64,000 nt of DNA from Escherichia coli. Its GTDB lineage: Bacteria; Pseudomonadota; Gammaproteobacteria; Enterobacterales; Enterobacteriaceae. The translations under genes and the position numbers were made by a program. How positions within the stretch are numbered: the first letter of the stretch is position 1; the number at the start of each line of letters is the position of its first letter. Location: assembly GCA_029351405.1 (NCBI GenBank), contig GCA_029351405.1_4841.1; one strand, given 5' to 3'. Under the pieces are notes generated by a model that made no database searches, was not told the DNA's origin, and saw nothing but the letters and a program-made list of their open reading frames with translations. This document shows, in pieces, positions 2,362 to 59,088 of this stretch.

Positions 2362-2823
2362 CTACTCCGCCAGGGTGATCACAACCATATTTAAGACTGT
2401 GTCGATAGCTCGGCCTGTTTCCTCTTCATGGAGGGTTTCGGCGCGGAGGTGCACGTCGGTGATGAAATTGTCGATGTGCATTGACGTCAGGTACGGGCGG
2501 TGCTGGCTGACCGGACGGTTGATCAGTACATAGTTACGCAGTGTGTTGAAGTCCTGCTGAGAGCACCCGGTGGTGTCAATGCGCAGGAAGCGTTCATTGT
2601 GGCTTGTCTTCAACTCAGTTACTTTGCCGAGGTAGACCAGAGGTCCATTGCGACCGATACGGAACATAACATCAACAACAGACTTGAAGATTTCGCGTTC
2701 AATCAGTGCGGTGGGTGACCAGCAGATCTCTTCTTTGTCGTCGGCGTACAGGGTGTCGATCACCAGAGGGAGTTGAATGTAACCGAAGTTGTGCAGTGGG
2801 TTGGTGAGTACCTTGTTTGTCAT
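2362..2823 (-). CDS. hypothetical early protein (153 aa)
   Basis: The true ATG at 2823 is preceded by the conserved cassette ATTGAAAGCAGGAACTATATCATG. The longer ORF-track start is an artefact. Confidence 0.6.
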   Translation of the reverse strand: MTNKVLTNPLHNFGYIQLPLVIDTLYADDKEEICWSPTALIEREIFKSVVDVMFRIGRNGPLVYLGKVTELKTSHNERFLRIDTTGCSQQDFNTLRNYVLINRPVSQHRPYLTSMHIDNFITDVHLRAETLHEEETGRAIDTVLNMVVITLAE

Positions 2824-2873
2824 GATATAGTTCCTGCTTTCAATTTGTGGCGAATGCCAATGAATTACTGGGA

Positions 2874-2902
2874 AGTATAGGGGAGGGCGTTTCAAAAGTA
2901 AA
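2874..2902 (-). promoter_or_regulatory. early sigma70-type promoter TTTACT-N17-TATACT
   Basis: Minus strand reads ggggcTTTACTtttgaaacgccctccccTATACTtcc. The -35 overlaps the 3' arm of the upstream terminator hairpin. Confidence 0.6.
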
Positions 2903-2922
2903 GCCCCTCAATGAGGGGCTTT
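2900..2922. terminator. GC-rich hairpin terminator downstream of the glutaredoxin-like gene
   Basis: AAAGCCCCTCaatGAGGGGCTTT, perfect inverted repeat flanked by A/T runs. Confidence 0.6.
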
Positions 2923-8627: not shown

Positions 8628-9116
8628 TTAGGCCAGTTTGCTCACCAGAGCTTCAACTGCGTCGGCGCTCAGTTTACCCATTTTGACGTACTGAGCTTTT
8701 GCTTCGCCGCCAACTGCTTTCACGATGTCGGTGTTGTCGTACCCCTTCTTAGGGAAGACCATCACAGAGAAGGAACCGTTGTTCAGCGGGTTCAGCTGGA
8801 TGCGACCTTTACCGACTACGATGGTGCCGTAAGTTTCGGTGTTTGCTTCGACAATGTGGATGTCGTGACCCAGGTTTTTCAGCATACCAACTTTGTCGGC
8901 AGTCTTAGCAACCACAGCTTTGTCAACCACAACCTGCTCTACCAGGGTGAAGCCGTTAGTCGATTTCACTTTACCGTTCAGCAGGTTCATGAAGGAAGTT
9001 TTGCCACCAGTGAAGCCAGCCGCCTGAGCGATGCGGAACATTTCAACTTTAGCAACTTCGGTGTTCAGTTCGAAAGAGATGGTGCCGTTGGTGATCAGAG
9101 TTTTGGTAGTAGCCAT
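8628..9116 (-). CDS. hypothetical early protein (162 aa)
   Basis: ATG at 9116 after AGGAATTACATC. Has its own strong early promoter and a long structured leader. No motif recognised. Confidence 0.6.
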   Translation of the reverse strand: MATTKTLITNGTISFELNTEVAKVEMFRIAQAAGFTGGKTSFMNLLNGKVKSTNGFTLVEQVVVDKAVVAKTADKVGMLKNLGHDIHIVEANTETYGTIVVGKGRIQLNPLNNGSFSVMVFPKKGYDNTDIVKAVGGEAKAQYVKMGKLSADAVEALVSKLA

Positions 9117-9189
9117 GATGTAATTCCTCATAATGTAGTTGGTTCATTTCACTTTTCATTCGGCGGTGTGTTGCCGCCCTATGTGAACT

Positions 9190-9218
9190 ATAATAGTGCA
9201 TCATTATTGAAGAGTAAA
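9190..9218 (-). promoter_or_regulatory. early promoter TTTACT-N17-TATTAT
   Basis: Minus strand reads ttattgaaaaagacTTTACTcttcaataatgatgcacTATTAT. An A/T-rich UP-like tract lies upstream. Confidence 0.6.
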
Positions 9219-11609: not shown

Positions 11610-11637
11610 AAAAAGAAATCCCCCTGTATTTAGGGGG
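11610..11637 (-). terminator. composite terminator hairpin carrying a late-promoter motif in its loop
   Basis: Minus strand reads CCCCCtaaatacaGGGGGatttcttttt. CTAAATAC (11626-11633) forms the loop. Confidence 0.6.
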
Positions 11638-11688
11638 ATCCAGTTACAGACCAAGTTCTTTCGTCGTGGCGTCGTCTAGTGCAACCTC

Positions 11689-15443: not shown

Positions 15444-15779
15444 TTATTTTTGAACTTGGGCTACAGACATCGCCCAGAGCGGGAGGGTGTGGGGGTCCAG
15501 GGCTTCCAGTAGATATTCGACGCGCTCTGACATGATACCTTCAGGGAAGTTTACTTCTTCTGGTTCGTTGTTGGCCGTCCAACCCAAGGTCAGTCCTTCA
15601 GCGTGATGGATGATATAAACGAAGTCGCCCGATTCGTAGTCCTTTTCCATCAGGTCGAAGAACGCTTCCATTTCTTCGTCGGAGAAGTAGTAGATGCGAG
15701 GTACGGAGCCGTCAGCAAAGTGTTCAGCACCCTGGAAGGCAAACATGTCATCGGCGGTGAAGTTCTTGAGTTGTGTCAT
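15444..15779 (-). CDS. hypothetical acidic early protein (111 aa)
   Basis: ATG at 15779 within the exact cassette TTGAACCGAAGGAACTATATCATG. Rich in D/E. Confidence 0.6.
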   Translation of the reverse strand: MTQLKNFTADDMFAFQGAEHFADGSVPRIYYFSDEEMEAFFDLMEKDYESGDFVYIIHHAEGLTLGWTANNEPEEVNFPEGIMSERVEYLLEALDPHTLPLWAMSVAQVQK

Positions 15780-15801
15780 GATATAGTTCCTTCGGTTCAA
15801 A

Positions 15802-16077
15802 TTAACGGCGGAAAGGGCGGTTTGCGTTTTCGCGGTTAGACCAATTCTTTTCAGCCCGAGCGATAGCCGCTGGACTCCATTCGCGCTCCCACTCTTTGTC
15901 TACTTCAGCCTGGTTGGCAGGCTCTACCATTTCAACGCCAGGGAAGTCGCATGACATGATTTCGCGCAGCTGGGCAGCTGGGGCGGTCTGGGCGTGGATC
16001 AATTCTTCGCCGTCGTAAACCTTGGCCATCAGGTATTTCTGACCGTGGCGGATATATGCGTCGAGGATAATTTTCAT
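15802..16077 (-). CDS. hypothetical early protein (91 aa)
   Basis: ATG at 16077 within the cassette TTGAAAAGCAGGAACTACACCATG. An early promoter lies 49 nt upstream. Confidence 0.6.
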   Translation of the reverse strand: MKIILDAYIRHGQKYLMAKVYDGEELIHAQTAPAAQLREIMSCDFPGVEMVEPANQAEVDKEWEREWSPAAIARAEKNWSNRENANRPFRR

Positions 16078-16125
16078 GGTGTAGTTCCTGCTTTTCAAGT
16101 TGGTGTTGTACTGCTTATGGAATGA

Positions 16126-16154
16126 AGTATAGGGAAGGATATTGAAGAAGTAAA
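16126..16154 (-). promoter_or_regulatory. early promoter TTTACT-N17-TATACT (cassette copy A)
   Basis: Minus strand reads TTTACTtcttcaatatccttcccTATACTtcattccataagcagtacaacaccaac. Confidence 0.65.
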
Positions 16155-16172
16155 GGGGCGAAAGCCCCTTTT
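16152..16172 (-). terminator. hairpin terminator overlapping the -35 of the next promoter
   Basis: Minus strand reads AAAAGGGGCtttcGCCCCTTTAC. Confidence 0.55.
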
Positions 16173-16192
16173 ATTGAATTATTTTTACGGCG

Positions 16193-16822: not shown

Positions 16823-17436
16823 TATCTTGTCCTCTTCAGTTTCTCTATCGTGTGCTTGTTCATGGCGATCACCCGAGGATCTACCTCGGAGATGGTCCGG
16901 CCTTTGAAGGACACACATTTCTGAAGATATTTAGCTTTCTTCACGACGTCAGCGGCATAAGCGTTCGATGCAGGATTACGGGCAAAGCCAGCATTGTAAG
17001 AGGAGAGGGATTTGCGGATATTCTGATTGTGATAGGTCAGCCAGAACTGCATCTCATCGAGGGCGGCTTGCGCGGCATATTCTTGGTCGGTCAGCAACTT
17101 TATGGCGACATTGGCATAGCACTTGCGATTCTTACAACCTTCGCGATCACCAACTGTCTTCACCTTGTTCTGAAAGGCTCCCATGTTGGCCGCCTTGAGG
17201 CCGTATCGCATTGACACTACATCTTCGCCAGCGCGGCTCTCACGCCAAGATATGGCGGCCAGAGTGTAGCCAAGATCTTGTGTCTTGCCCACGTGATAGG
17301 CGGTTGCCATCGTATTAAGTTGTTGCTCGGAGAAATTATAAACACATTGGCTTGTATTTTGGGAAGCGTGCACATTCCCGCTGGCAATGGTAAAGGTCAC
17401 GGACAAGGCCATGGCCTTCAACGTTGTCATCGTCAT
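16822..17436 (-). CDS. secreted lytic transglycosylase (SLT domain) with signal peptide
   Basis: Signal peptide MTMTTLKAMALSVTFTIASGNVHA|SQ. SLT-type catalytic region AISWRESRAG and a later SSYNAG motif. Confidence 0.7.
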   Translation of the reverse strand: MTMTTLKAMALSVTFTIASGNVHASQNTSQCVYNFSEQQLNTMATAYHVGKTQDLGYTLAAISWRESRAGEDVVSMRYGLKAANMGAFQNKVKTVGDREGCKNRKCYANVAIKLLTDQEYAAQAALDEMQFWLTYHNQNIRKSLSSYNAGFARNPASNAYAADVVKKAKYLQKCVSFKGRTISEVDPRVIAMNKHTIEKLKRTR

Positions 17437-26616: not shown

Positions 26617-27279
26617 TTACACCTCCACCGCGTGAGACTTCAGGAGTTCATCAATCTCTTTCTGTCCCATGTATGAGAACGGGGTGCGCTGGTAGAACGC
26701 CCAGAGTACTAACTGGACAACAGCACGGGAACGGGTTTCGGCCGTCATCACCAGGCCACTGAAATGAGGAGACTCAGCTGTCCATTGTATCTCTTCGCCC
26801 AGGTCTTGATTACAGGTCACCGAGATGCGGAACTTGTTGCACAGATTGTCGACTTCTTTGTACGCATCGGTAGACACACGAAGTTGTTCCGCATGTGCCC
26901 ACGGAGTTGTGACGATTCTTTCACCCATCACTTTATCAGAGATAAACCAATCAATACATTCGGTAAACTCACTAAAATGGTCGATACGATAAATGCAGTC
27001 TCCCCCTTCCATAGAACGCATGGCATGATAGCGAGCGTCGATTTCGTTGTTGTGCATCGCGTTGAAGTCGATGAACACGCGACGCGCCAGCACAACATCT
27101 TCTGGTTGAAGTGCCAGGAAATCGTTCAGGCGGCTATAATGGAGGACATTGGAACCGTCGTGGCCACGTGTGCAATATGCGTAATGGCTACCGATACGGG
27201 CGTGGGCAATATAAGACAACGGGGCGAAGAATAATCCGTCAGGATCAGGACCGACGATAATAGAATAAAGTTTTTCCAT
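26617..27279 (-). CDS. hypothetical early protein (220 aa)
   Basis: ATG at 27279 after hairpin GGGCGGCttatcataaaGCTGCCC + tttcatttgagtGACTATATCATG. Confidence 0.6.
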   Translation of the reverse strand: MEKLYSIIVGPDPDGLFFAPLSYIAHARIGSHYAYCTRGHDGSNVLHYSRLNDFLALQPEDVVLARRVFIDFNAMHNNEIDARYHAMRSMEGGDCIYRIDHFSEFTECIDWFISDKVMGERIVTTPWAHAEQLRVSTDAYKEVDNLCNKFRISVTCNQDLGEEIQWTAESPHFSGLVMTAETRSRAVVQLVLWAFYQRTPFSYMGQKEIDELLKSHAVEV

Positions 27280-27335
27280 GATATAGTCACTCAAATGAAA
27301 GGGCAGCTTTATGATAAGCCGCCCGAGGTTATTGA

Positions 27336-29975: not shown

Positions 29976-30263
29976 TTACACCTCGTCTTCTTCAGGTCCA
30001 CCGTCAATCAGGATACGAGCGGTGTCGAAAGTTTCCCCACCCGTGTTCAACAGCTTGGTTAGATCATCAAGAGTACCGACAGGACCAAGATCAGCCTGGC
30101 GGAGAACGAACTCTAGAAGCCCGTAGAGCGCTGATTGGAAACGGGAGTTGTCGATATCGTTCTTGACTTCCATCAGGCGGACAACATTGGCAGACTGGAC
30201 ATAACTCAGCTGAGTCTTACCTTTTGCCATGTCTTTCACGGAACGGCGTTGTTCAGGCGTCAT
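29976..30263 (-). CDS. hypothetical protein (95 aa)
   Basis: ATGA coupling to the upstream gene. Confidence 0.5.
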   Translation of the reverse strand: MTPEQRRSVKDMAKGKTQLSYVQSANVVRLMEVKNDIDNSRFQSALYGLLEFVLRQADLGPVGTLDDLTKLLNTGGETFDTARILIDGGPEEDEV

Positions 30264-30637
30264 AATGTTCCACCCCCGACAGAGATCAAGAACTCTTCTT
30301 GCATGGTCTTGACCGGGTGGTGGTTTCGGATTTCGATCATGAAGCCCCAGCCGCCGTCGGCGACGTTGCCAAAGGTCTTGACGCCAAAGGACTTCGTCCC
30401 GTTGGAGCAGGAATAGATGTCCAGGACGTATGGGCTACCCTGATTGTCGATCCCACGATTCACGTCTTCTGATACGCAGCGCTCAATCATCTTCCCGTTC
30501 TTATACAGAACGAGGTCTTGGCCATACGCCTTGAAAGCATAAACACCGTTGGTAGACACTCCGGTGATGACAGGAGGGGCGGAAACAGCAGCAAAGGAAG
30601 CGCCTAGCAGGGCAACAGCGAGGATTAACTTTTTCAT
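30260..30637 (-). CDS. predicted secreted protein (125 aa)
   Basis: ATG at 30637 in the cassette TTGAAACCAAGAGACTATATCATG. Signal peptide MKKLILAVALLGASFAAVSA|P. Confidence 0.65.
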   Translation of the reverse strand: MKKLILAVALLGASFAAVSAPPVITGVSTNGVYAFKAYGQDLVLYKNGKMIERCVSEDVNRGIDNQGSPYVLDIYSCSNGTKSFGVKTFGNVADGGWGFMIEIRNHHPVKTMQEEFLISVGGGTL

Positions 30638-30661
30638 GATATAGTCTCTTGGTTTCAAATG

Positions 30662-30683
30662 GGCGGGGTATGATTACCCCGCC
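30662..30683 (-). promoter_or_regulatory. GC-rich leader hairpin followed by CATTTGAAA
   Basis: Minus strand reads GGCGGGGTAatcaTACCCCGCC. Its stem is identical to that of the hairpin at 31223-31240 and its loop is complementary. Confidence 0.55.
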
Positions 30684-30689
30684 GTGGGT

Positions 30690-31196
30690 TTATAGAGTAA
30701 CAAGTGATACGGTAAAAACCATCGTCCCGTCTGTTGCCATTTTTCTTGAAACTGGTATGACGCGAGGCTGGCAGAATATCCATTCTTTCTCCATGGACGC
30801 CAAGTCCAGCATATCCATTTCTGATTCATCGCCTTTGTTCACAAATTTTTCTAGAGAACCATAGACATTAAGCCCCTCCGGGAGTCCGTTTCGATGTTTG
30901 TAACAAATGCGGGCAACAGCTTTGGTTCCGTACGATTTAGAAAATTGTTTGGCCACATGCTTCAGTTCACTGAAGCTAAGACAAGAATCCCATGTCTGGA
31001 ACATGTCGCCTCGTTCAAACATCATCTCTAAACGCGCAACGTCCTCTTTAGGCAGCCCGCGATAAAGTGTGGTCGTCTGTGGTTCGCGTAATTCTTGCAC
31101 CAGATCACGGACGGCAGGGGAAACAGTACCGGGGCGCATTATGTGGGACTTATCATGGACGAGGTAAAATAAATCTTGAATTTGTTGATCGGTCAT
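30690..31196 (-). CDS. candidate mono-ADP-ribosyltransferase (R-S-ExE class; T4 Alt/Mod-like size)
   Basis: 168 aa. The ordered motifs TLYRGLP (Arg), CLSFSEL (S-x-S) and MEKEWIF (E-x-E) have spacing typical of the ART fold. ATG at 31196 in the exact cassette. Confidence 0.45.
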   Translation of the reverse strand: MTDQQIQDLFYLVHDKSHIMRPGTVSPAVRDLVQELREPQTTTLYRGLPKEDVARLEMMFERGDMFQTWDSCLSFSELKHVAKQFSKSYGTKAVARICYKHRNGLPEGLNVYGSLEKFVNKGDESEMDMLDLASMEKEWIFCQPRVIPVSRKMATDGTMVFTVSLVTL

Positions 31197-31222
31197 GGTA
31201 TAGTTCCTGCATTTCAAATAGA

Positions 31223-31240
31223 CGGGGTAATCATACCCCG
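31223..31240 (-). promoter_or_regulatory. GC-rich leader hairpin followed by TATTTGAAA
   Basis: Minus strand reads CGGGGTAtgatTACCCCG. Confidence 0.55.
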
Positions 31241-31302
31241 CCCAAAGTTATAGAATTAACTGATGTGCTTCAGAAGAGCGAAGAGGATCGCGGCCTTGGC
31301 CT

Positions 31303-31494
31303 TTACCTTTCCCACGATACCTGTCTCGACATCAACTTCTTCAGCAACCCACTCTTTCCCTTCTTGCTGATGATAACGTCACGACGCTGTGCGTAGACTT
31401 CTTTGGTCGCATACACACGACGGAACCCTTTAGCGCGGAGCAAGCCCCAATTGCGATCAATTTCTACTGAGGTTTCTACCATTTTGTTCTTCAT
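31303..31494 (-). CDS. small basic early protein (63 aa); possible -1 frameshift extension to 31256
   Basis: ATG at 31494 downstream of an early promoter. An in-frame G_GGA_AAG heptamer lies at 31354-31360, and the -1 frame stays open to the TAA at 31256-31258. Confidence 0.5.
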   Translation of the reverse strand: MKNKMVETSVEIDRNWGLLRAKGFRRVYATKEVYAQRRDVIISKKGKSGLLKKLMSRQVSWER

Positions 31495-31545
31495 GTTATA
31501 ATCTTACCTTTCAACCCGGTGAACCCATCGTTCGCCAGTTATTGA

Positions 31546-31574
31546 ATAATAGGACATTCCTTAGAGGAAGTAAA
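31546..31574 (-). promoter_or_regulatory. early promoter TTTACT-N17-TATTAT
   Basis: Minus strand reads ggggTTTACTtcctctaaggaatgtccTATTATtcaataac. Confidence 0.6.
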
Positions 31575-36235: not shown

Positions 36236-38254
36236 TTAGAACACAACTTTCACAGTGCGGTTGAACGAGCCGCTCACCTTCACGAACACGTGGTTGCGTT
36301 GGGTGGTAGAGAAGCCCAGACCGGACAGCTGCTCAGTGCTTGGCTGTACTTTAATCTTACCACCTAACATTTCAAAAACCTTGCGGTGTTTATCAAGTTC
36401 CGGCTTCAGATATTCGTTATAGAAGCCACGGGTGCCGACAGGGTTAGCACAACCTTCCAGGATGAAGAACACGTGCTTGTTGCCAGTCTGCTCACCGTCC
36501 CAATGGTTTGGTGAGTTCAGAACCAGCTGTACCTTCTGGAAGACCGAGGTCTTGATGCCCCAGATTTCCTGAGAGCGAGCGTCGTCCTTCAGGGTAGAAC
36601 GGATGTCTACCACCTGACCAGCGCGGACATCAATCACAACAGCCAGAGTGCGATCTTTGTGCTTCAGACCAGGATGCGAAAAACGCTTGGTCTGGCCTTT
36701 GTATTCAACTTCGATTTCGAAGCCCATATCACAGGTTTCACGCTGGCTGAAGTTAGTGACATAGAACTCGTACAGACCATCACGCAGCTTGCGTTCATCG
36801 CTGAAGAAGATGTTCTCCACCGGGCGGCGGTTGGGATCAATGCCGTCCATACCGTTCATGTCGATATCCAGGGTTGCGCCAGTTGCCGAACGACGGTTGT
36901 GATAATACACGTGGTTGTGAAGAGGATCGTTCAGGCTCAGATCCAGGTCGTCGTTGTTATGCCAAGCCAGTGACACGCGGAGGAAGCTGTCGACATTGCC
37001 GCCTGCGGTCTTCACGCGCTCTTTGATAGAGTCGGCCACTTCGCCATTGTACGACCAGCTGAAGCCGTTGTTCCACTTGAACAGGTTAGGAGCGCCTGCG
37101 GTAGCCGGAGCGATCAGGGACATCAGGTTGCCAATGTGAGAGTTTTCGACCAGCACTTCCAGGGAATGCGCCTTTGGCAACACGTTGGTCAGGAAGTCGT
37201 CGATCGTGATCTCTTCAACCTTGTCCAGGGACTTGGTCGGAGTCTTCACTTCAGACGCCAGCTGAGCAAACGGGTCCATCTTCTTCTGAGCTGCCAGATC
37301 GGCGAACAGAACGTTGTTGATGGTCAGATCGTCATACACGGCATAACGGCGACCCAGTGAATCAGTCAGACCCAGCGCTTCGACTTCTTTCTGCGCGTTT
37401 TCAATCATAGACTTCGTGACCAGCGCGGTTGGGCGCTTGTAGTTCGTCGGAGCGACTTTGGTTTCAAAGGACTTCACGGCGGTTTCCAGATCCCGGCCTT
37501 CATTGAGGTCTACCAGCAGAGAGCCAATCACGGTATTACGAATGCCGTGAGGGGTATGACCGTTTGCACGGTAGCCAGTGCGCCAAGCCCACAGAGCGCG
37601 TTTCTCTTCTGCAGTTTGTTCGTACAGGGTCTTGTTCACCACAAACGCCTGCACTGCCGCTTTGTGCTCTTCACCGCGATACAGAGAATTCTGGTCGATC
37701 AATTCCAGAACGATTTCAGCCGATTCCAGAGACAGTTCACGCAGGCCGCGCTCAAACACTTCAATCGCCTGGCGGATTTCACCCTTCTTAGAAGCGATGG
37801 CATCTGCCCGCAGAACATAGCTGCCCAGCAGGTCGGTGTGGAAGTGGTTGTAGGTGCGGACAATACCGTCTTTCATTTCGTGATTCGACCCAACACCAAC
37901 TTTCTTGGTGTCGTTGAAGTACACGTCGACGATTGCGTGCTGCTTAACATACGCTGACAGCGCCGCAGCGACAACGTCATATTCGTTACCCAGCTGAATG
38001 TTATCCCAGATAGAGATCACGTTCAGGTCGGAGTCGATGGTGACCACACCGCCGATGTTACGGATGAATTGTTTACAGCAGGTGCAGTCGTGCTCGGTAC
38101 GCTCACGGTAGAGCGGGTTGGTACCAGCAGGGAAAGAAGACAGATACAGATCCCACAGAGCATCTTTATCGATGTTGGTCATGAACAGACCAGTTGCTGA
38201 CATGGCCAGCACGTTATTGTTGACAGCTACTGCGAAGGGCTTAAAATCTGACAT
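36236..38254 (-). CDS. large hypothetical protein (672 aa) with a Cys cluster and a possible TerD-like C-terminal module
   Basis: HDCTCCKQF near the N-terminus. DDLDLSL..HVYYHNRRSATGATLDIDMNG..PVENI loosely resembles the TerD DLDxS..VFYxN..S..G..GDN.TG pattern. The leader has a hairpin + ATTTGAA + GAAACAGGAAGATTACATCATG. Confidence 0.6.
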   Translation of the reverse strand: MSDFKPFAVAVNNNVLAMSATGLFMTNIDKDALWDLYLSSFPAGTNPLYRERTEHDCTCCKQFIRNIGGVVTIDSDLNVISIWDNIQLGNEYDVVAAALSAYVKQHAIVDVYFNDTKKVGVGSNHEMKDGIVRTYNHFHTDLLGSYVLRADAIASKKGEIRQAIEVFERGLRELSLESAEIVLELIDQNSLYRGEEHKAAVQAFVVNKTLYEQTAEEKRALWAWRTGYRANGHTPHGIRNTVIGSLLVDLNEGRDLETAVKSFETKVAPTNYKRPTALVTKSMIENAQKEVEALGLTDSLGRRYAVYDDLTINNVLFADLAAQKKMDPFAQLASEVKTPTKSLDKVEEITIDDFLTNVLPKAHSLEVLVENSHIGNLMSLIAPATAGAPNLFKWNNGFSWSYNGEVADSIKERVKTAGGNVDSFLRVSLAWHNNDDLDLSLNDPLHNHVYYHNRRSATGATLDIDMNGMDGIDPNRRPVENIFFSDERKLRDGLYEFYVTNFSQRETCDMGFEIEVEYKGQTKRFSHPGLKHKDRTLAVVIDVRAGQVVDIRSTLKDDARSQEIWGIKTSVFQKVQLVLNSPNHWDGEQTGNKHVFFILEGCANPVGTRGFYNEYLKPELDKHRKVFEMLGGKIKVQPSTEQLSGLGFSTTQRNHVFVKVSGSFNRTVKVVF

Positions 38255-38368
38255 GATGTAATCTTCCTGTTTCAGTTCAAATGTGCGCCCCGTTTGCCAG
38301 GGCGCTTCGTTTAAGTGAGGTCAATATACGCTGGATTGAGTTATTGAAGAACGAAGTAAAGGGAATCT

Positions 38369-39592: not shown

Positions 39593-39660
39593 GGTATCCT
39601 CTTAGAATACGAAAACAGAGGCCATTATAGCCTCTGTTGTTTAGTGAATAACTGTATATC

Positions 39661-40549: not shown

Positions 40550-41014
40550 TTATTCGCTTTTGGCCTTTGTAGGCCGGATAATGTATTTTGGGACCAGCTT
40601 CCATTCAGGAACCTGATCGTGTTTAACCACTTTAATGCGTGACATATCAGCGGCTTCGGTGACCTGCTCAGGATGAATGACCTTCACCATGTTCCACTGC
40701 TCCAGCAGCTTGATGATTCGGTTCATCCTCAGGACATCTTCGCGGTTAAATCCGTTGTAATGCCCGTCCAGCATAAATAGATGCTTAAAGTGGACGATAT
40801 AATACTTACCACACTTATGAAGAATATGGCAAGTCTGATACAGAGTATTCGGCTCTTGGCGCGTGTTTACCCCAATTCGACTCAGTGTTTCCTTGATCCC
40901 CAGGAATATACCTGGCCGATCTTGGTTCAATTGAACTTCAACCATACAATCAACGATGCTGGCCTCATCGTTGACTGCTGAAATATTCAATATGTCTAGC
41001 GTATTACGCGCCAT
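40550..41014 (-). CDS. regA: translational repressor RegA homologue (N-terminally extended)
   Basis: IKETLSRIGV..NTLYQTCHILHKCGKYYIVHFKHLFMLDG ... EWKLVPKY parallels T4 RegA VKETLTRMGI..VLYQSCHILQKKGLYYIVHFKEMLRMDG ... EWKLVPKY. Sits after 44-62 as in T4. Confidence 0.85.
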   Translation of the reverse strand: MARNTLDILNISAVNDEASIVDCMVEVQLNQDRPGIFLGIKETLSRIGVNTRQEPNTLYQTCHILHKCGKYYIVHFKHLFMLDGHYNGFNREDVLRMNRIIKLLEQWNMVKVIHPEQVTEAADMSRIKVVKHDQVPEWKLVPKYIIRPTKAKSE

Positions 41015-42459: not shown

Positions 42460-43115
42460 TATGTATTTCCATGATATAGTTTACAGAACAGAACCCAAGC
42501 GTCGTCATCATACGGGTTCCAGCCCTCTTTGAATTTGTTTAACATACTCGTTGCGGTGTTCTCTTTAATAGAGAACAAACGGGCAATTCTATGGCACCCA
42601 TCACCAGTAGAAACCCAGTGATCATACACTACCCCAGCCTTTAACCACATCGGTCTGGTGTTGTGTAGCAGCGCAGCCCCGGTGTCCCAGGGTTTTATTC
42701 CTGCGGCGGGGTGGCTTTTACCAGTTCTTCCGTGCATGGGATGAAGATTCCCAGACTTGCCCTTCAACCAACTCGAGACACCAACTCGGTGATGTTTAGG
42801 TCCCGCTGACCTACCGTTGGCGATACCACAACCCCGTGGCTGAAATGATTTGTTTAAACATTTTGGGTGATCAATGTTCTCACTAATCAACTGCTGCTCT
42901 CTCCAATATGCTTCTTCTGGGGAGTCAAACAGTTCTACGAATTCTACATCAAAGAAATCAGAACCTTTCTTAGATATGATTTCCTTGACTGTTTGTGAAG
43001 AAGTGAAATATGAAGTGAACAATTGTAAAGGATGTGCACCCAATTTCGTTCTAGAACCAAAATAGAAAGAACCATCCTTCCCTAACAAATGATATACAAA
43101 CGGTTGGTTCCTCAT
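42459..43115 (-). CDS. GIY-YIG homing endonuclease (T4 Seg-like) with NUMOD3-like repeats
   Basis: FVYHLLGKDGSFYFGSRT (GIY...YIG variant), EEAYWREQQLI, CLN, then GNLHPMHGRTGKSHPAAG. ATG at 43115 with SD GAGG. TAATG overlap with gp44. Confidence 0.7.
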   Translation of the reverse strand: MRNQPFVYHLLGKDGSFYFGSRTKLGAHPLQLFTSYFTSSQTVKEIISKKGSDFFDVEFVELFDSPEEAYWREQQLISENIDHPKCLNKSFQPRGCGIANGRSAGPKHHRVGVSSWLKGKSGNLHPMHGRTGKSHPAAGIKPWDTGAALLHNTRPMWLKAGVVYDHWVSTGDGCHRIARLFSIKENTATSMLNKFKEGWNPYDDDAWVLFCKLYHGNT

Positions 43116-43180
43116 TTCAGCCTCGTGTAGAAGAATCATTTCAAATAGGCGGGGAACTCCCCCGCCCACACATTATAGCA
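42459..43180 (-). mobile_element. free-standing homing-endonuclease insertion between gp45 and gp44
   Basis: Interrupts the otherwise T4-conserved 45-44 junction. Carries its own extended -10 (TGcTATAAT at 43172-43180) and a leader hairpin. Confidence 0.6.
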
Positions 43181-50342: not shown

Positions 50343-50426
50343 GAGAGTGGTGATAGTTCCTTCATTTCAGAGTCAGTGTTGTGCTGCTTATGGAATGAAG
50401 TATATGGGGTTTATTGAAGAAGTAAA
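50343..50426 (-). repeat. early promoter + leader cassette copy B (orphan: the ATG position is mutated)
   Basis: Minus strand reads TTTACTtcttcaataaaccccaTATACTtcattccataagcagcacaacactgactcTGAAATGAAGGAACTATCACCAC. About 80% identical to copies at 16078-16154 and 58961-59036, but CACCAC replaces ATCATG. Confidence 0.7.
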
Positions 50427-50451
50427 CCCCGTTTATTGAATAAATTTAAAT

Positions 50452-50696: not shown

Positions 50697-51140
50697 TCAG
50701 TTGTTAATGCGGAACAGTTGTGGATAACCACCTGGATGCCCTTCTCCGGTCACGAAGACCTCGTACCGGGCACCTTTAACCAAACCGGGCAAATTGCCTG
50801 AGTCGAGCAGATAGCGGATTTTATCCATAGTGTCCATCCAGGACTTAGCAGGTTCAGCTTCAGCCTCTCCACGATTGAGGACGAGTTCACCTTCAGAATA
50901 ATACTTCCCGCTGTCCTTCATGTAGTACAGCTTGATATGGATATACTGAGGGGATGGGACCAAACGCCAGCCGTCATCAATCAGATCCTGGCGATCATTA
51001 TCCAGGGACTGGTAATCGATCTCACCAGACGCCAGACCATAGCTGCGCATGTAGCGGAACTTCTCAACACGGTCTTTCACGTCAGAGATGAAGAACTCCT
51101 TCGCGGCTGGACTGATAAAAATGTATTTCTCTTTTGACAT
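50697..51140 (-). CDS. hypothetical early protein (147 aa)
   Basis: ATG at 51140 in the exact cassette TTGAAAGGAAGGAACTATATCATG. The upstream TGA lies inside the TTGAAA. Confidence 0.6.
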   Translation of the reverse strand: MSKEKYIFISPAAKEFFISDVKDRVEKFRYMRSYGLASGEIDYQSLDNDRQDLIDDGWRLVPSPQYIHIKLYYMKDSGKYYSEGELVLNRGEAEAEPAKSWMDTMDKIRYLLDSGNLPGLVKGARYEVFVTGEGHPGGYPQLFRINN

Positions 51141-51157
51141 GATATAGTTCCTTCCTT

Positions 51158-51382
51158 TCAAAGAATGATGTGTTTGTCGATATCGGACTGCGTTGCAATC
51201 TCCCAGCGGACGATGTTCTCGGTTGTGATGAAATCACGGTTCAGGTGAGAGGCTGGCACATACACCAATGTGTTGACCATGAAGTAGCGCTGCTCATTGT
51301 TCCAGGAGTCAACATAAGCCTCAATAAGGCACACTTCGATCACTTCGCCTTTCGGATTCTTCACAGTCTTTTTCAGATACAT
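51158..51382 (-). CDS. hypothetical protein (74 aa)
   Basis: ATG at 51382 (MYLKKTV). Confidence 0.45.
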   Translation of the reverse strand: MYLKKTVKNPKGEVIEVCLIEAYVDSWNNEQRYFMVNTLVYVPASHLNRDFITTENIVRWEIATQSDIDKHIIL

Positions 51383-58603: not shown

Positions 58604-58960
58604 CTATTTGCGAATGCCAACCTGAGCATAATACACATGATAATCACCGTGGGTACGGAAGCTGGTGAGGTGGAAGGTGACGAGGTGGCTCCCGAAAGCT
58701 ACAACTTTGGTATCTGGGGAGCATAAATCATTAGTTAGTTCACCCAGAACCTTACCACAAAACTCCCCAACAATAGCGTTAAATCTGTCAATGTGTGGAC
58801 TGGTCACCGTCATTGGACCAACATCTGCACAGTAGATCCCTTTTATCATCTTTCCCTGGCTGTCGCGTACTGGCTTTGCAGGCTGGTAAGGGTTGACGCG
58901 GCGTTTCAGGTTACAGAGGCCGATTTCTTTCAGGATAGCGTTAATTTCGGTCTTGGTCAT
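58604..58960 (-). CDS. hypothetical early-type protein (118 aa) inserted between the sheath and tube genes
   Basis: ATG at 58960 in the exact cassette TTGAAACGAAGGATCTATATCATG. Has its own early promoter and terminator. Confidence 0.6.
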   Translation of the reverse strand: MTKTEINAILKEIGLCNLKRRVNPYQPAKPVRDSQGKMIKGIYCADVGPMTVTSPHIDRFNAIVGEFCGKVLGELTNDLCSPDTKVVAFGSHLVTFHLTSFRTHGDYHVYYAQVGIRK

Positions 58961-59008
58961 GATATAGATCCTTCGTTTCAAGTTGGTGTCGTACTGCTTA
59001 TGTTTAGA

Positions 59009-59036
59009 ATTATACGTGAGTTATTGAAGAAGTAAA
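59009..59036 (-). promoter_or_regulatory. early promoter TTTACT-N16-TATAAT (cassette copy C)
   Basis: Minus strand reads ttattgaattacTTTACTtcttcaataactcacgTATAATtctaaacataagcagtacgacaccaac. Confidence 0.65.
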
Positions 59037-59065
59037 GTAATTCAATAAAATAATCTGGAAAATTT

Positions 59066-59088
59066 AAAACCCCGCCGAAGCGGGGTTT
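59066..59088 (-). terminator. terminator after the tail sheath gene
   Basis: AAAACCCCGCcgaaGCGGGGTTT, identical core to the hairpin at 52404-52427. Confidence 0.75.

Follow-up and report, generated by a model that had tools for sequence, protein, structure and literature searches.

Genomic context of the cassette locus

The stretch of DNA analyzed here, referred to below as the window, comprises 64,000 nucleotides of an Escherichia coli assembly (GCA_029351405.1, contig GCA_029351405.1_4841.1) and represents a ViI-like phage of the family Ackermannviridae with Agtrevirus as the nearest genus. The Escherichia phages YX22 and PC3 and the Salmonella phage vB_CECAV_050 show 93–97% identity to the window, whose genes lie nearly all on the minus strand. 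In this work we describe a 24-nt cassette which provides the Shine–Dalgarno (SD) sequence and the ATG of seven genes of the window, and the larger unit of terminator, promoter and leader to which this cassette belongs. For the analysis the annotated gene starts of vB_CECAV_050 were mapped onto the window by tblastn, giving a set of 81 starts which includes nine open reading frames (ORFs) of the window taken from the ORF list. A k-mer enrichment over the whole window was uninformative, being dominated by codon bias.

The complete arrangement is seen upstream of position 16077. Read along the minus strand, a terminator-like GC hairpin (16152..16171, AAAGGGGCtttcGCCCCTTT) runs with its T-tail into the −35 box of a T4-type early promoter-like sequence TTTACT-N17-TATACT (16126..16154, spacer TCTTCAATA). 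The promoter is followed by a conserved unstructured leader CATAAGCAGTACAACACCAAC (16099..16119) and by the cassette copy TTGAAAagcAGGAACTACACCATG (16075..16098), at which the hyp086-like ORF 16077..15802 starts. A second, intercistronic cassette copy on the same strand (15777..15800) forms the start of the hyp085-like ORF 15779..15444.

A 24-nt cassette at seven gene starts

Searching the window with TTGAAANNNAGGAACTATATCATG and allowing up to three mismatches we obtained seven matches, all seven on the minus strand (2821-2844, 15777-15800, 16075-16098, 30635-30658, 31194-31217, 51138-51161, and 58958-58981). The expected number is 0, since not a single match was found in 100 dinucleotide-preserving shuffles. 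The copies follow the consensus (A/T)(C/T)TTGAAA-N3-AGGAAC-TAYAYC-ATG. In each of the seven copies the ATG is the annotated gene start transferred from vB_CECAV_050, and the cassette provides this ATG along with the SD sequence AGGA at positions −12 to −9. The SD part reads AGGAAC, AGGATC or AGAGAC and GGAG is present in none of the copies. The cassette is conserved from −8 through +4, which is beyond the needs of an SD sequence, and conservation falls abruptly past the ATG, as seen with ten leaders from six phages.

The first-pass annotation, which was made from the sequence alone, had placed the cassette before the ATGs at 15779, 16077, 30637, 31196, 51140 and 58960, and all six are annotated starts where the cassette is found with 0–2 mismatches. 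Its further list of sites with one to four changes was only partly correct. The site at 2823 is a true copy with an N3 shorter by 1 nt, but 9116 and 23063 retain only the 3′ half with more than four changes, and 27279 and 38254 are related sequences with altered spacing. The recurring N-termini MKxRNYIM had been called spurious. They arise when the ORF lister starts at the TTG of the cassette, located 21 nt 5′ of each ATG, and because N3 is variable and the copy at 2823 carries a frame-breaking indel these extensions are indeed spurious and noncoding.

The proteins encoded downstream of the seven cassettes do not show blastp similarity to one another and fall into seven different PHROGs, six of them of unknown function and one ADP-ribosyltransferase-like, which bears out the view that the ORFs are unrelated. 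Pfam gave no match for any of the seven proteins. With no blastp matches among the downstream proteins, paralogy, i.e., gene duplication, was rejected as the source of the shared upstream sequence.

We then scored the gene starts with a position weight matrix. The scores are bimodal: six starts reach 32–40 bits, one start 23 bits and the next best start only 12.5 bits. The matrix was trained on the cassette sites themselves and the absolute scores are therefore inflated, but the lack of intermediate scores agrees with the independent mismatch search. The cassettes thus form a discrete family and not a continuum.

A larger unit ending in the cassette

The first-pass annotation had missed that the cassette forms the 3′ part of a longer unit made up of terminator, promoter and leader. 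When the 130 nt located 5′ of each copy were compared, about 110 nt of upstream sequence proved to be common to the copies at 16077, 58960 and 2823 and to a decayed copy at 50426-50350, and looser versions of this unit were found at 9116, 31494 and 38254. In the complete unit an AT-rich stretch is followed by a GC hairpin with a T-tail running into the −35 box, the promoter, the leader and the cassette. The GC hairpins are situated directly 5′ of the −35 box or overlap with it (16171-16152, 59088-59067, and 2921-2901).

The promoter of the unit has the form TTTACT-TCTTCAATAA-N6-TATAMT (M being A or C), which can also be given as TTTACTTCTTCAATAA-N6-TATAMT. The pattern TTTACT-N16/17-TAYNNT occurs seven times on the coding strand and not at all on the opposite strand, with 0.03 occurrences expected from a first-order Markov simulation, and six of the seven promoter-like sites run into a cassette or a cassette variant. 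A generic scanner likewise lists the promoter sites as well as the flanking terminator-like hairpins. The leader is about 40 nt long, unstructured and CA-rich (CATAAGCAGTACRACACCAAC) with the conserved form CATAAGCAGTAC(A/G)ACACCAAC.

At the second complete unit the cassette TTGAAAcgaAGGATCTATATCATG (58958..58981, minus strand) forms the start of ORF 58960..58604, a member of the phrog_13016/VOG8808 family inserted between the tail sheath and the tail tube genes. The upstream part of this unit (58982..59088) consists of the hairpin at 59088-59067, the promoter TTTACT-N16-TATAAT at 59036-59009 and the leader at 59002-58982, and the module ends with another terminator at 58597-58580. The full unit with the 1-nt shorter N3 (2821..2921, minus strand) comprises the hairpin at 2921-2901, the promoter at 2902-2874 and the cassette at 2844-2821, preceding ORF 2823..2362.

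The decayed unit (50350..50434, minus strand) retains the promoter (50426-50399), the leader (50392-50372) and a truncated cassette (50371-50350). The ATG and the 5′ part of the gene, both present in vB_CECAV_050, were deleted between two ACTAT repeats, and a second internal deletion took most of the remainder of the gene, so that the module is pseudogenised. We also considered whether the remnant at 50349 is a cassette-to-cassette junction, but this was rejected as it is a microhomology deletion at ACTAT which inactivated the gene.

The other strong copies are truncated versions, consisting of the cassette alone or of a hairpin and the cassette, and are found between cistrons within the same early transcription units. 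The cassettes at 15779 and 51140 are intercistronic. The latter is an exact copy (51138..51161, minus strand) at the start of the hyp134-like ORF 51140..50697, and the upstream ORF terminates at the TGA contained in the TTGAAA of this copy. The cassettes at 31196 and 30637 come after a GC hairpin plus YATTTGAAA. On the minus strand, the hairpin 31243-31221 (loop TATGATTA) and TATTTGAAAtgcAGGAACTATACCATG together span 31194..31243 in front of the ADP-ribosyltransferase-like ORF 31196..30690, and the hairpin 30683-30662 (loop TAATCATA) and CATTTGAAAccaAGAGACTATATCATG span 30635..30683 in front of ORF 30637..30260. The combination of a hairpin and (C/T)ATTTGAA, already noticed in the first pass, was recovered before 31196, 30637, 27279 and 38254 and at 43147.

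The hairpins before 31196 and 30637, with their loops TATGATTA and TAATCATA, are mutual reverse complements. In the closely related vB_CECAV_050 the hairpin loop at the 30637 site has the opposite orientation (PQ306799, 76619 locus), which points to an inversion of the loop or to template switching at a quasi-palindrome.

Start regions and RNA structure

We calculated the folding energy of the start regions from −40 to +30. The cassette starts have a mean minimum free energy of −3.6 kcal/mol versus −10.3 kcal/mol for the other starts (Mann–Whitney p = 2e-4) and are more accessible around the SD sequence and the AUG than those of other genes. An RNAalifold analysis of ten leaders, representing six phages and four loci, yielded no consensus base pair, and there was no match to Rfam in the window. 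A structured cis-regulatory RNA such as a riboswitch, a thermosensor or an Rfam leader was therefore rejected.

The consensus of all 81 starts, late genes included, resembles the 3′ half of the cassette, being G-rich at −12 to −9 with T at −6, A at −5, A at −3, T at −2, C at −1 and A at +4. The trinucleotide ATC precedes 26% of the starts (21/81) versus 3.8% of all ATGs on the minus strand, and as had been claimed it is also found at −3 to −1 of late genes including those for portal, scaffold and major capsid. The full motif is not equally present at late genes, as the late, highly expressed structural genes lack it. Judged from these sequence features the cassette looks like a full-consensus, unstructured ribosome loading site of the Ackermannviridae.

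Exchange of the ORFs behind the cassette

A comparison of the window and of vB_CECAV_050 with phage CBA120 showed that at three loci the homology runs through promoter, hairpin and cassette and ends at +1 to +8 of the ATG (window 30637/77294, vB_CECAV_050 96257/97413, and window 2823/49721). Past these breakpoints the ORFs bear no relation to each other, or an additional ORF has been inserted. In CBA120 an unrelated ORF is located behind the cassette of the 30637 locus, and at the 2823 locus the extra ORF orf096 is inserted exactly at the ATG. In the Dickeya phage phiDP23.1 the leader of the 16077 locus is joined straight to the ortholog of the 15779 gene (hyp085), whereas in the window the 16077 ORF and the second cassette copy lie in between.

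The ORF family of 58960 has a patchy distribution with 42 records, some of them from T4-like Straboviridae, and it is present at three different loci. In the window and in the Salmonella phage maane it is situated between the sheath and tube genes. In the Salmonella phage aagejoakim it occupies the slot after the DUF7270 gene, i.e., the hyp086 slot, which in CBA120 and in the window is taken by a 16077-type ORF. In the Klebsiella phage Menlow it directly follows the capsid gene. Within the Ackermannviridae the members of this family are always located behind a complete unit with TTGAAAcgaAGG and with cga as N3.

The promoter exists in two variants, TATAAT/ctaaac and TATACT/cattcc. The window pairs TATACT with the 16077-type ORF and TATAAT with the 58960 ORF, while in CBA120 TATAAT is paired with the 16077-type ORF and in aagejoakim TATACT with the 58960-type ORF. 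As the promoter variants are re-assorted relative to the ORFs, crossovers must have taken place within the conserved leader, at some point from the −10 box to N3. In the two Kuttervirus genomes CBA120 and aagejoakim the flank past the terminator of the module is 98.5% identical and the module itself 78%. The loss of homology at the ATG, the presence of one ORF family at three loci and the re-assortment of promoters and ORFs lend support to the first-pass proposal of a portable cassette travelling with early accessory ORFs.

Distribution among phages

A 47-nt query consisting of leader and cassette matched 284 phage records, most of them with about 87–96% identity along the whole query. They are phages of Salmonella, Klebsiella, Escherichia, Dickeya, Serratia, Shigella, Erwinia and Yersinia. 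Every record that was fetched belongs to the Ackermannviridae, and almost all of the 284 come from hosts of this family. In IMG/VR the exact 24-mer occurs solely in viral contigs of 156–161 kb, and in 596 Gb of bacterial and archaeal genomes it has no match. Among metagenome contigs it is present in two. The first is Ackermannviridae-like and covers a fragment of the locus of the ADP-ribosyltransferase-like gene; the other does not show similarity to CBA120 and was discarded as probably a chance match.

The complete genomes of vB_CECAV_050 and of CBA120, which belongs to a different subfamily, contain 6–9 strong copies each, mostly at the loci also seen in the window. The copy number per genome is low, about 7–9. 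An IMG/VR search with the ADP-ribosyltransferase-like protein returned only three loci, too few for a family-wide alignment.

A probable early-expression module

We consider it likely, with a probability of about 0.7, that the cassette is the leader/start end of an early-expression module resembling the promoter-early stem–loop (PeSL) elements of T4-like phages, which would combine a strong ribosome loading site with portable homology for swaps of accessory ORFs. On the RNA level the cassette would be an open, purine-rich ribosome loading site of high efficiency, in which the SD sequence AAGGA ends 8 nt (ACUAUAUC) before the AUG; the spacer behind it is AU-rich and has A at −3. Thanks to the cassette a promoter-proximal or hairpin-isolated cistron could be translated without coupling. 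On the DNA level the near-identical repeats of 25–110 bp, present family-wide at about 7–9 per genome, would serve as portable homology. Recombination in the leader or in the cassette would swap the ORF behind the ATG together with N3 and the terminator, so that a newly acquired ORF would be expressed at once. We infer that homologous recombination and not selection on random joints was the route of this exchange.

PeSLs are composed of an AT-rich region, a stem–loop and a sigma-70-like promoter and carry an SD sequence and an ATG at their 3′ end (Arbiol et al. 2010, PMC2839356; Comeau et al. 2014, PMC4122927). The early promoters of T4 and PST have the form TTTACW-N17-TAYWAT (PMC4122927). PeSLs adjoin ORFans and indels, their crossovers have been mapped between the −10 box and the ATG and their stem–loops may overlap with the −10 box, and for RB49 and phi1 PeSL mini-circles as well as promoter and terminator activity have been demonstrated experimentally (PMC2839356, PMC4122927).

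The module described here shares with the PeSLs the AT-rich region, the stem–loop or terminator, an early promoter sequence of the sigma-70-like TTTACW-N17-TAYWAT type, and the SD sequence and ATG at its 3′ end. Like the PeSLs it is dispersed in many copies next to small ORFans, all but one of the cassette ORFs being of unknown function, and between relatives it accompanies insertions, deletions and replacements whose junctions fall within the element. Also the position of the crossovers between the −10 box and the ATG is the same, and some of the stem–loops overlap a −10-like box, namely the hairpins with −10-like loops at 31243-31221 and 39638-39614. The module differs from the PeSLs in that it belongs to the Ackermannviridae and not to the Straboviridae, and in its sharper leader/start part of about 45 nt with about 87–96% identity across genera. 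This part also stands alone, without promoter, between cistrons, and the copy number is low (about 7–9).

Two further systems are comparable. Morons of lambdoid and other phages are autonomous insertions of promoter, gene and terminator. The 58960 module with its terminator, promoter, leader, ORF and second terminator is similarly autonomous within the late sheath/tube block and is absent from many relatives. Morons are, however, defined by their insertion context, whereas here the regulatory part is a conserved repeat which itself supplies the homology for recombination. The T7 gene 10 leader consists of an enhancer, AAGGAG and an AU-rich spacer. With this leader the cassette shares an upstream A/U-rich element, a strong SD sequence, an AU-rich spacer of 6–8 nt and an unstructured context, and by analogy the cassette likely works in the same way as a ribosome loading site of high efficiency. 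Its sequence is different, and it serves low-profile accessory genes and not the major capsid gene. No known complementarity of the cassette to 16S rRNA beyond the SD sequence was identified.

Several observations weigh against the interpretation as a PeSL-like module. Four of the seven strong copies (15779, 51140, 31196, and 30637) lack a promoter and are at most partial PeSLs. The promoter activity, the early timing and the efficiency of translation are deduced from the nucleotide sequence. When the window was compared with CBA120 the identity at −24 to −1 of the cassette loci was not above that of many other start regions; the special property of the cassette is thus the likeness between loci and not between orthologs. 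In addition, orthologous copies retain locus-specific signatures across genera and subfamilies (e.g., ctgactcTGAAAtga at one locus in three genomes). The persistence of these signatures implies that exchange is rare and that long-term purifying selection, and not just homogenisation, preserves the sequence. The known role of an SD sequence does not account for the selection on TTGAAA and CTATATC, and this leaves room for an additional binding factor.

The early regulatory signals of ViI-like phages were essentially undescribed before. According to the CBA120 paper early promoters could not be found by informatics (PMC3184105), the AG3 and LIMEstone papers give only few matches to the sigma-70 or T4 consensus, and promoters are unmentioned in the 2024 review of the Ackermannviridae. 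The element is absent from the founding genome papers and from this review, searches for the motif or for transcript maps of Ackermannviridae gave nothing relevant, and we found no paper which links PeSLs with this family. The module provides a concrete family-wide consensus for early promoter, leader and start region, explains the mis-called TTG starts and can aid the annotation of start codons in about 280 genomes. It also marks sites of gain, loss and exchange of accessory genes in phages which are much used for biocontrol and detection, and these sites could serve as natural landing pads with built-in expression for reporter or payload genes. Beyond this family, the module would extend the idea of PeSL shuffling past the Straboviridae and suggests that the mechanism is general among T4-related lineages.

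Alternative explanations

The room left for a binding factor leads to a translational regulator; a shared trans-acting factor, be it such a regulator or an endoribonuclease, had been the other alternative of the first pass. As judged from the pattern of conservation, UUGAAA (−21 to −16), CUAUAUC (−7 to −1) and the CA-rich leader might together be the site of such a phage protein, with the RegA homolog as the likeliest candidate. This would constitute a family-wide operator by which a mobile set of early accessory genes is turned off (or on) in concert, and any ORF recombined into the cassette would gain expression along with the correct temporal control. We put this forward only tentatively and regard it as a minor possibility. 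In a more specific form the non-SD positions (CUAUAUC-AUG-A, possibly also UUGAAA) would be the operator of a RegA-family repressor, and RegA would shut off the early mRNAs together once it has accumulated; this we hold to be unlikely.

T4 RegA binds to unstructured A/U-rich start regions of many early mRNAs, requires the AUG and has rIIA and rIIB among its targets. The RegA-family gene of the window (40553..41014, minus strand) encodes a full-length homolog (PF01818, E = 2e-34; phrog_242, E = 3e-53) and is a candidate for a trans-acting factor only. Like the T4 operators, the cassette lies in unstructured RNA at the starts of a number of early mRNAs and includes the AUG, and its conservation from −8 through +4 past the needs of the SD sequence would fit an operator. 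In relatives, rIIA and rIIB also bear cassette-like start regions (AGGATTTCTATATCATG and GGGAACTACAAGATG). On the other hand, the orthologs of gp45, gp44 and regA, which are the best-known targets of T4 RegA, are without the cassette in vB_CECAV_050 and in CBA120. The RegA sites of T4 and RB69 are degenerate A/U-rich sequences, in contrast to the sharp 24-nt motif seen here. An operator would also leave the exact breakpoints at the ATG and the movement of the ORFs unexplained, although it could coexist with the model of an expression cassette.

The resemblance of the 81-start consensus to the 3′ half of the cassette, the frequency of ATC before the starts, those of late genes included, and the fact that the cassette start regions are the least structured ones could also mean that the cassette is nothing more than the best ribosome-binding context for this phage and its host. 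It would then have arisen by convergent selection, with neither mobility nor a dedicated factor. The bimodal scores without intermediates do not agree with this explanation, nor does the lack of the full motif at the late, highly expressed structural genes. Furthermore, the copies share a 20-nt leader and the promoter, which is unexpected for convergence on a ribosome site. Descent and exchange are indicated by the breakpoints at the ATG and by the occurrence of one ORF family at three loci, and several recombination junctions within the cassette are already seen. Convergence as the sole explanation therefore appears improbable to us.

A hairpin followed by an AU-rich single strand is a common context of RNase E. 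Since this arrangement precedes some of the cassettes, the cassette or the hairpin with YAUUUGAA ahead of it could be the site of an endoribonuclease, either a RegB-like phage enzyme or the host RNase E, which inactivates or matures the early mRNAs. Indeed the ortholog of ORF 17436..16825, located two genes upstream of the 16077 unit, is annotated as RegB in several GenBank records. For this ORF of the window, however, Pfam gave no RegB match even at E ≤ 10 and no PDB chain was matched at E ≤ 1. T4 RegB cuts at GGAG. The SD sequence AGGAAC of the cassette is devoid of GGAG while many non-cassette genes of the window do have it, and the copies of the promoter type do not contain the hairpin. 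A RegB target was therefore rejected as unlikely, given neither a RegB signal (Pfam, PDB sequence search) nor GGAG in the cassette, and we regard an endoribonuclease site in general as very improbable.

The orthologs of this ORF (16825-17436, minus strand) are called RegB or endoribonuclease RegB family in phiDP23.1, aagejoakim, ZQ1 and allotria and Vs.1 in the AG3 record. In Pfam the ORF has just a sub-threshold match to SLT transglycosylase, and the RegB annotation looks like a propagated error.

Finally, TTGAAA and TATATC resemble TTGACA and TATAAT, and gp45 has TTGAAC-N6-TATATT 5′ of its SD sequence, but −35- and −10-like promoter boxes for a phage-modified RNA polymerase can practically be dismissed and were rejected on spacing and position relative to the ATG, as the two boxes are 9 bp apart versus 16–18 bp for sigma-70, TATATC is without the invariant final T, transcription starting about 7 nt downstream of TATATC would begin inside the ORF so that the element could not express the gene it precedes, and the complete units already have a canonical promoter 45–60 nt upstream.

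Variant units and further observations

Apart from the strong copies several variants are present on the minus strand of the window. The variant unit at 31492..31574 has the promoter TTTACT-N17-TATTAT (31574-31546) and the start region GTTGAAAggtAAGATTATAACATG (31515-31492). At 9114..9218 the promoter (9218-9190) and a hairpin (9179-9162) are followed by a duplicated degenerate start region (9153-9114). In this start region the 3′ half is duplicated, with GTGAAAtgaACCAACTACATTATG followed 15 nt later in frame by GAGGAATTACATCATG, and there are two in-frame candidate ATGs at 9131 and 9116 with an SD sequence only at the second. At 27277..27324 a terminator-like hairpin (27324-27301) is combined with CATTTGAgtGACTATATCATG, which has a shorter spacing and a weak SD sequence, at the start of ORF 27279. 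At 38252..38305 the hairpin 38305-38285 is combined with CATTTGAACtgaaacAGGAAGATTACATCATG, which has a longer spacing, at the start of ORF 38254.

A hairpin and a TATTTGAAA start region without the AGGAAC/TATATC half are found at 43113..43167 on the minus strand. Here an extra ORF of 214 aa (42474-43167, minus strand) is present between gp45, which encodes the sliding clamp, and gp44, which encodes the clamp loader. This inserted Seg-like ORF has a weak, sub-threshold match to SegE_GIY-YIG (E = 0.003). It now uses the start region with the hairpin and TATTTGAAA...GAGGctgaaATG, which in vB_CECAV_050 and CBA120 serves gp44 directly. After the stop codon of the 214-aa ORF follows AACTATATCATG, located 13 nt before the ATG of gp44 and out of frame.

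The sequence TTCAATAA occurs twice per complete unit (16126-16185, 59009-59066, and 50399-50448), just 5′ of the terminator hairpin and in the promoter spacer after the −35 box. This repeat may act as an UP-like element or be bound by a factor. Terminator-like hairpins with perfect or near-perfect −10 sequences in the loop (TATAAT, TATTAT), followed by T-runs, are found at 39614-39638 of the window and at 148251 and 151088 (plus strand) of PQ306799; they may be overlapping terminator and promoter signals, as reported for some PeSLs.

Another motif, CTAAATA(C), recurs 20–40 nt 5′ of late/structural and some other genes (11616-11641, 46057, 49251, 8442, 54715, and 58256) and is sometimes located within a hairpin loop (11641-11616). 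By analogy to TATAAATA of T4 it is probably the gp55-type late promoter of the family.

Distant homologs of the 58960 protein are encoded in the T4-like Shigella phage vB_SdyM_006 (Straboviridae) and in the Cronobacter phage LPCS28, with PeSL-type promoters upstream. The leader of vB_SdyM_006 (440-600) holds TTGAAACGAA and GGAGTATATTATG, which resemble a split Ackermannviridae cassette. At the level of sequence this likeness hints at an exchange of modules between phage families.

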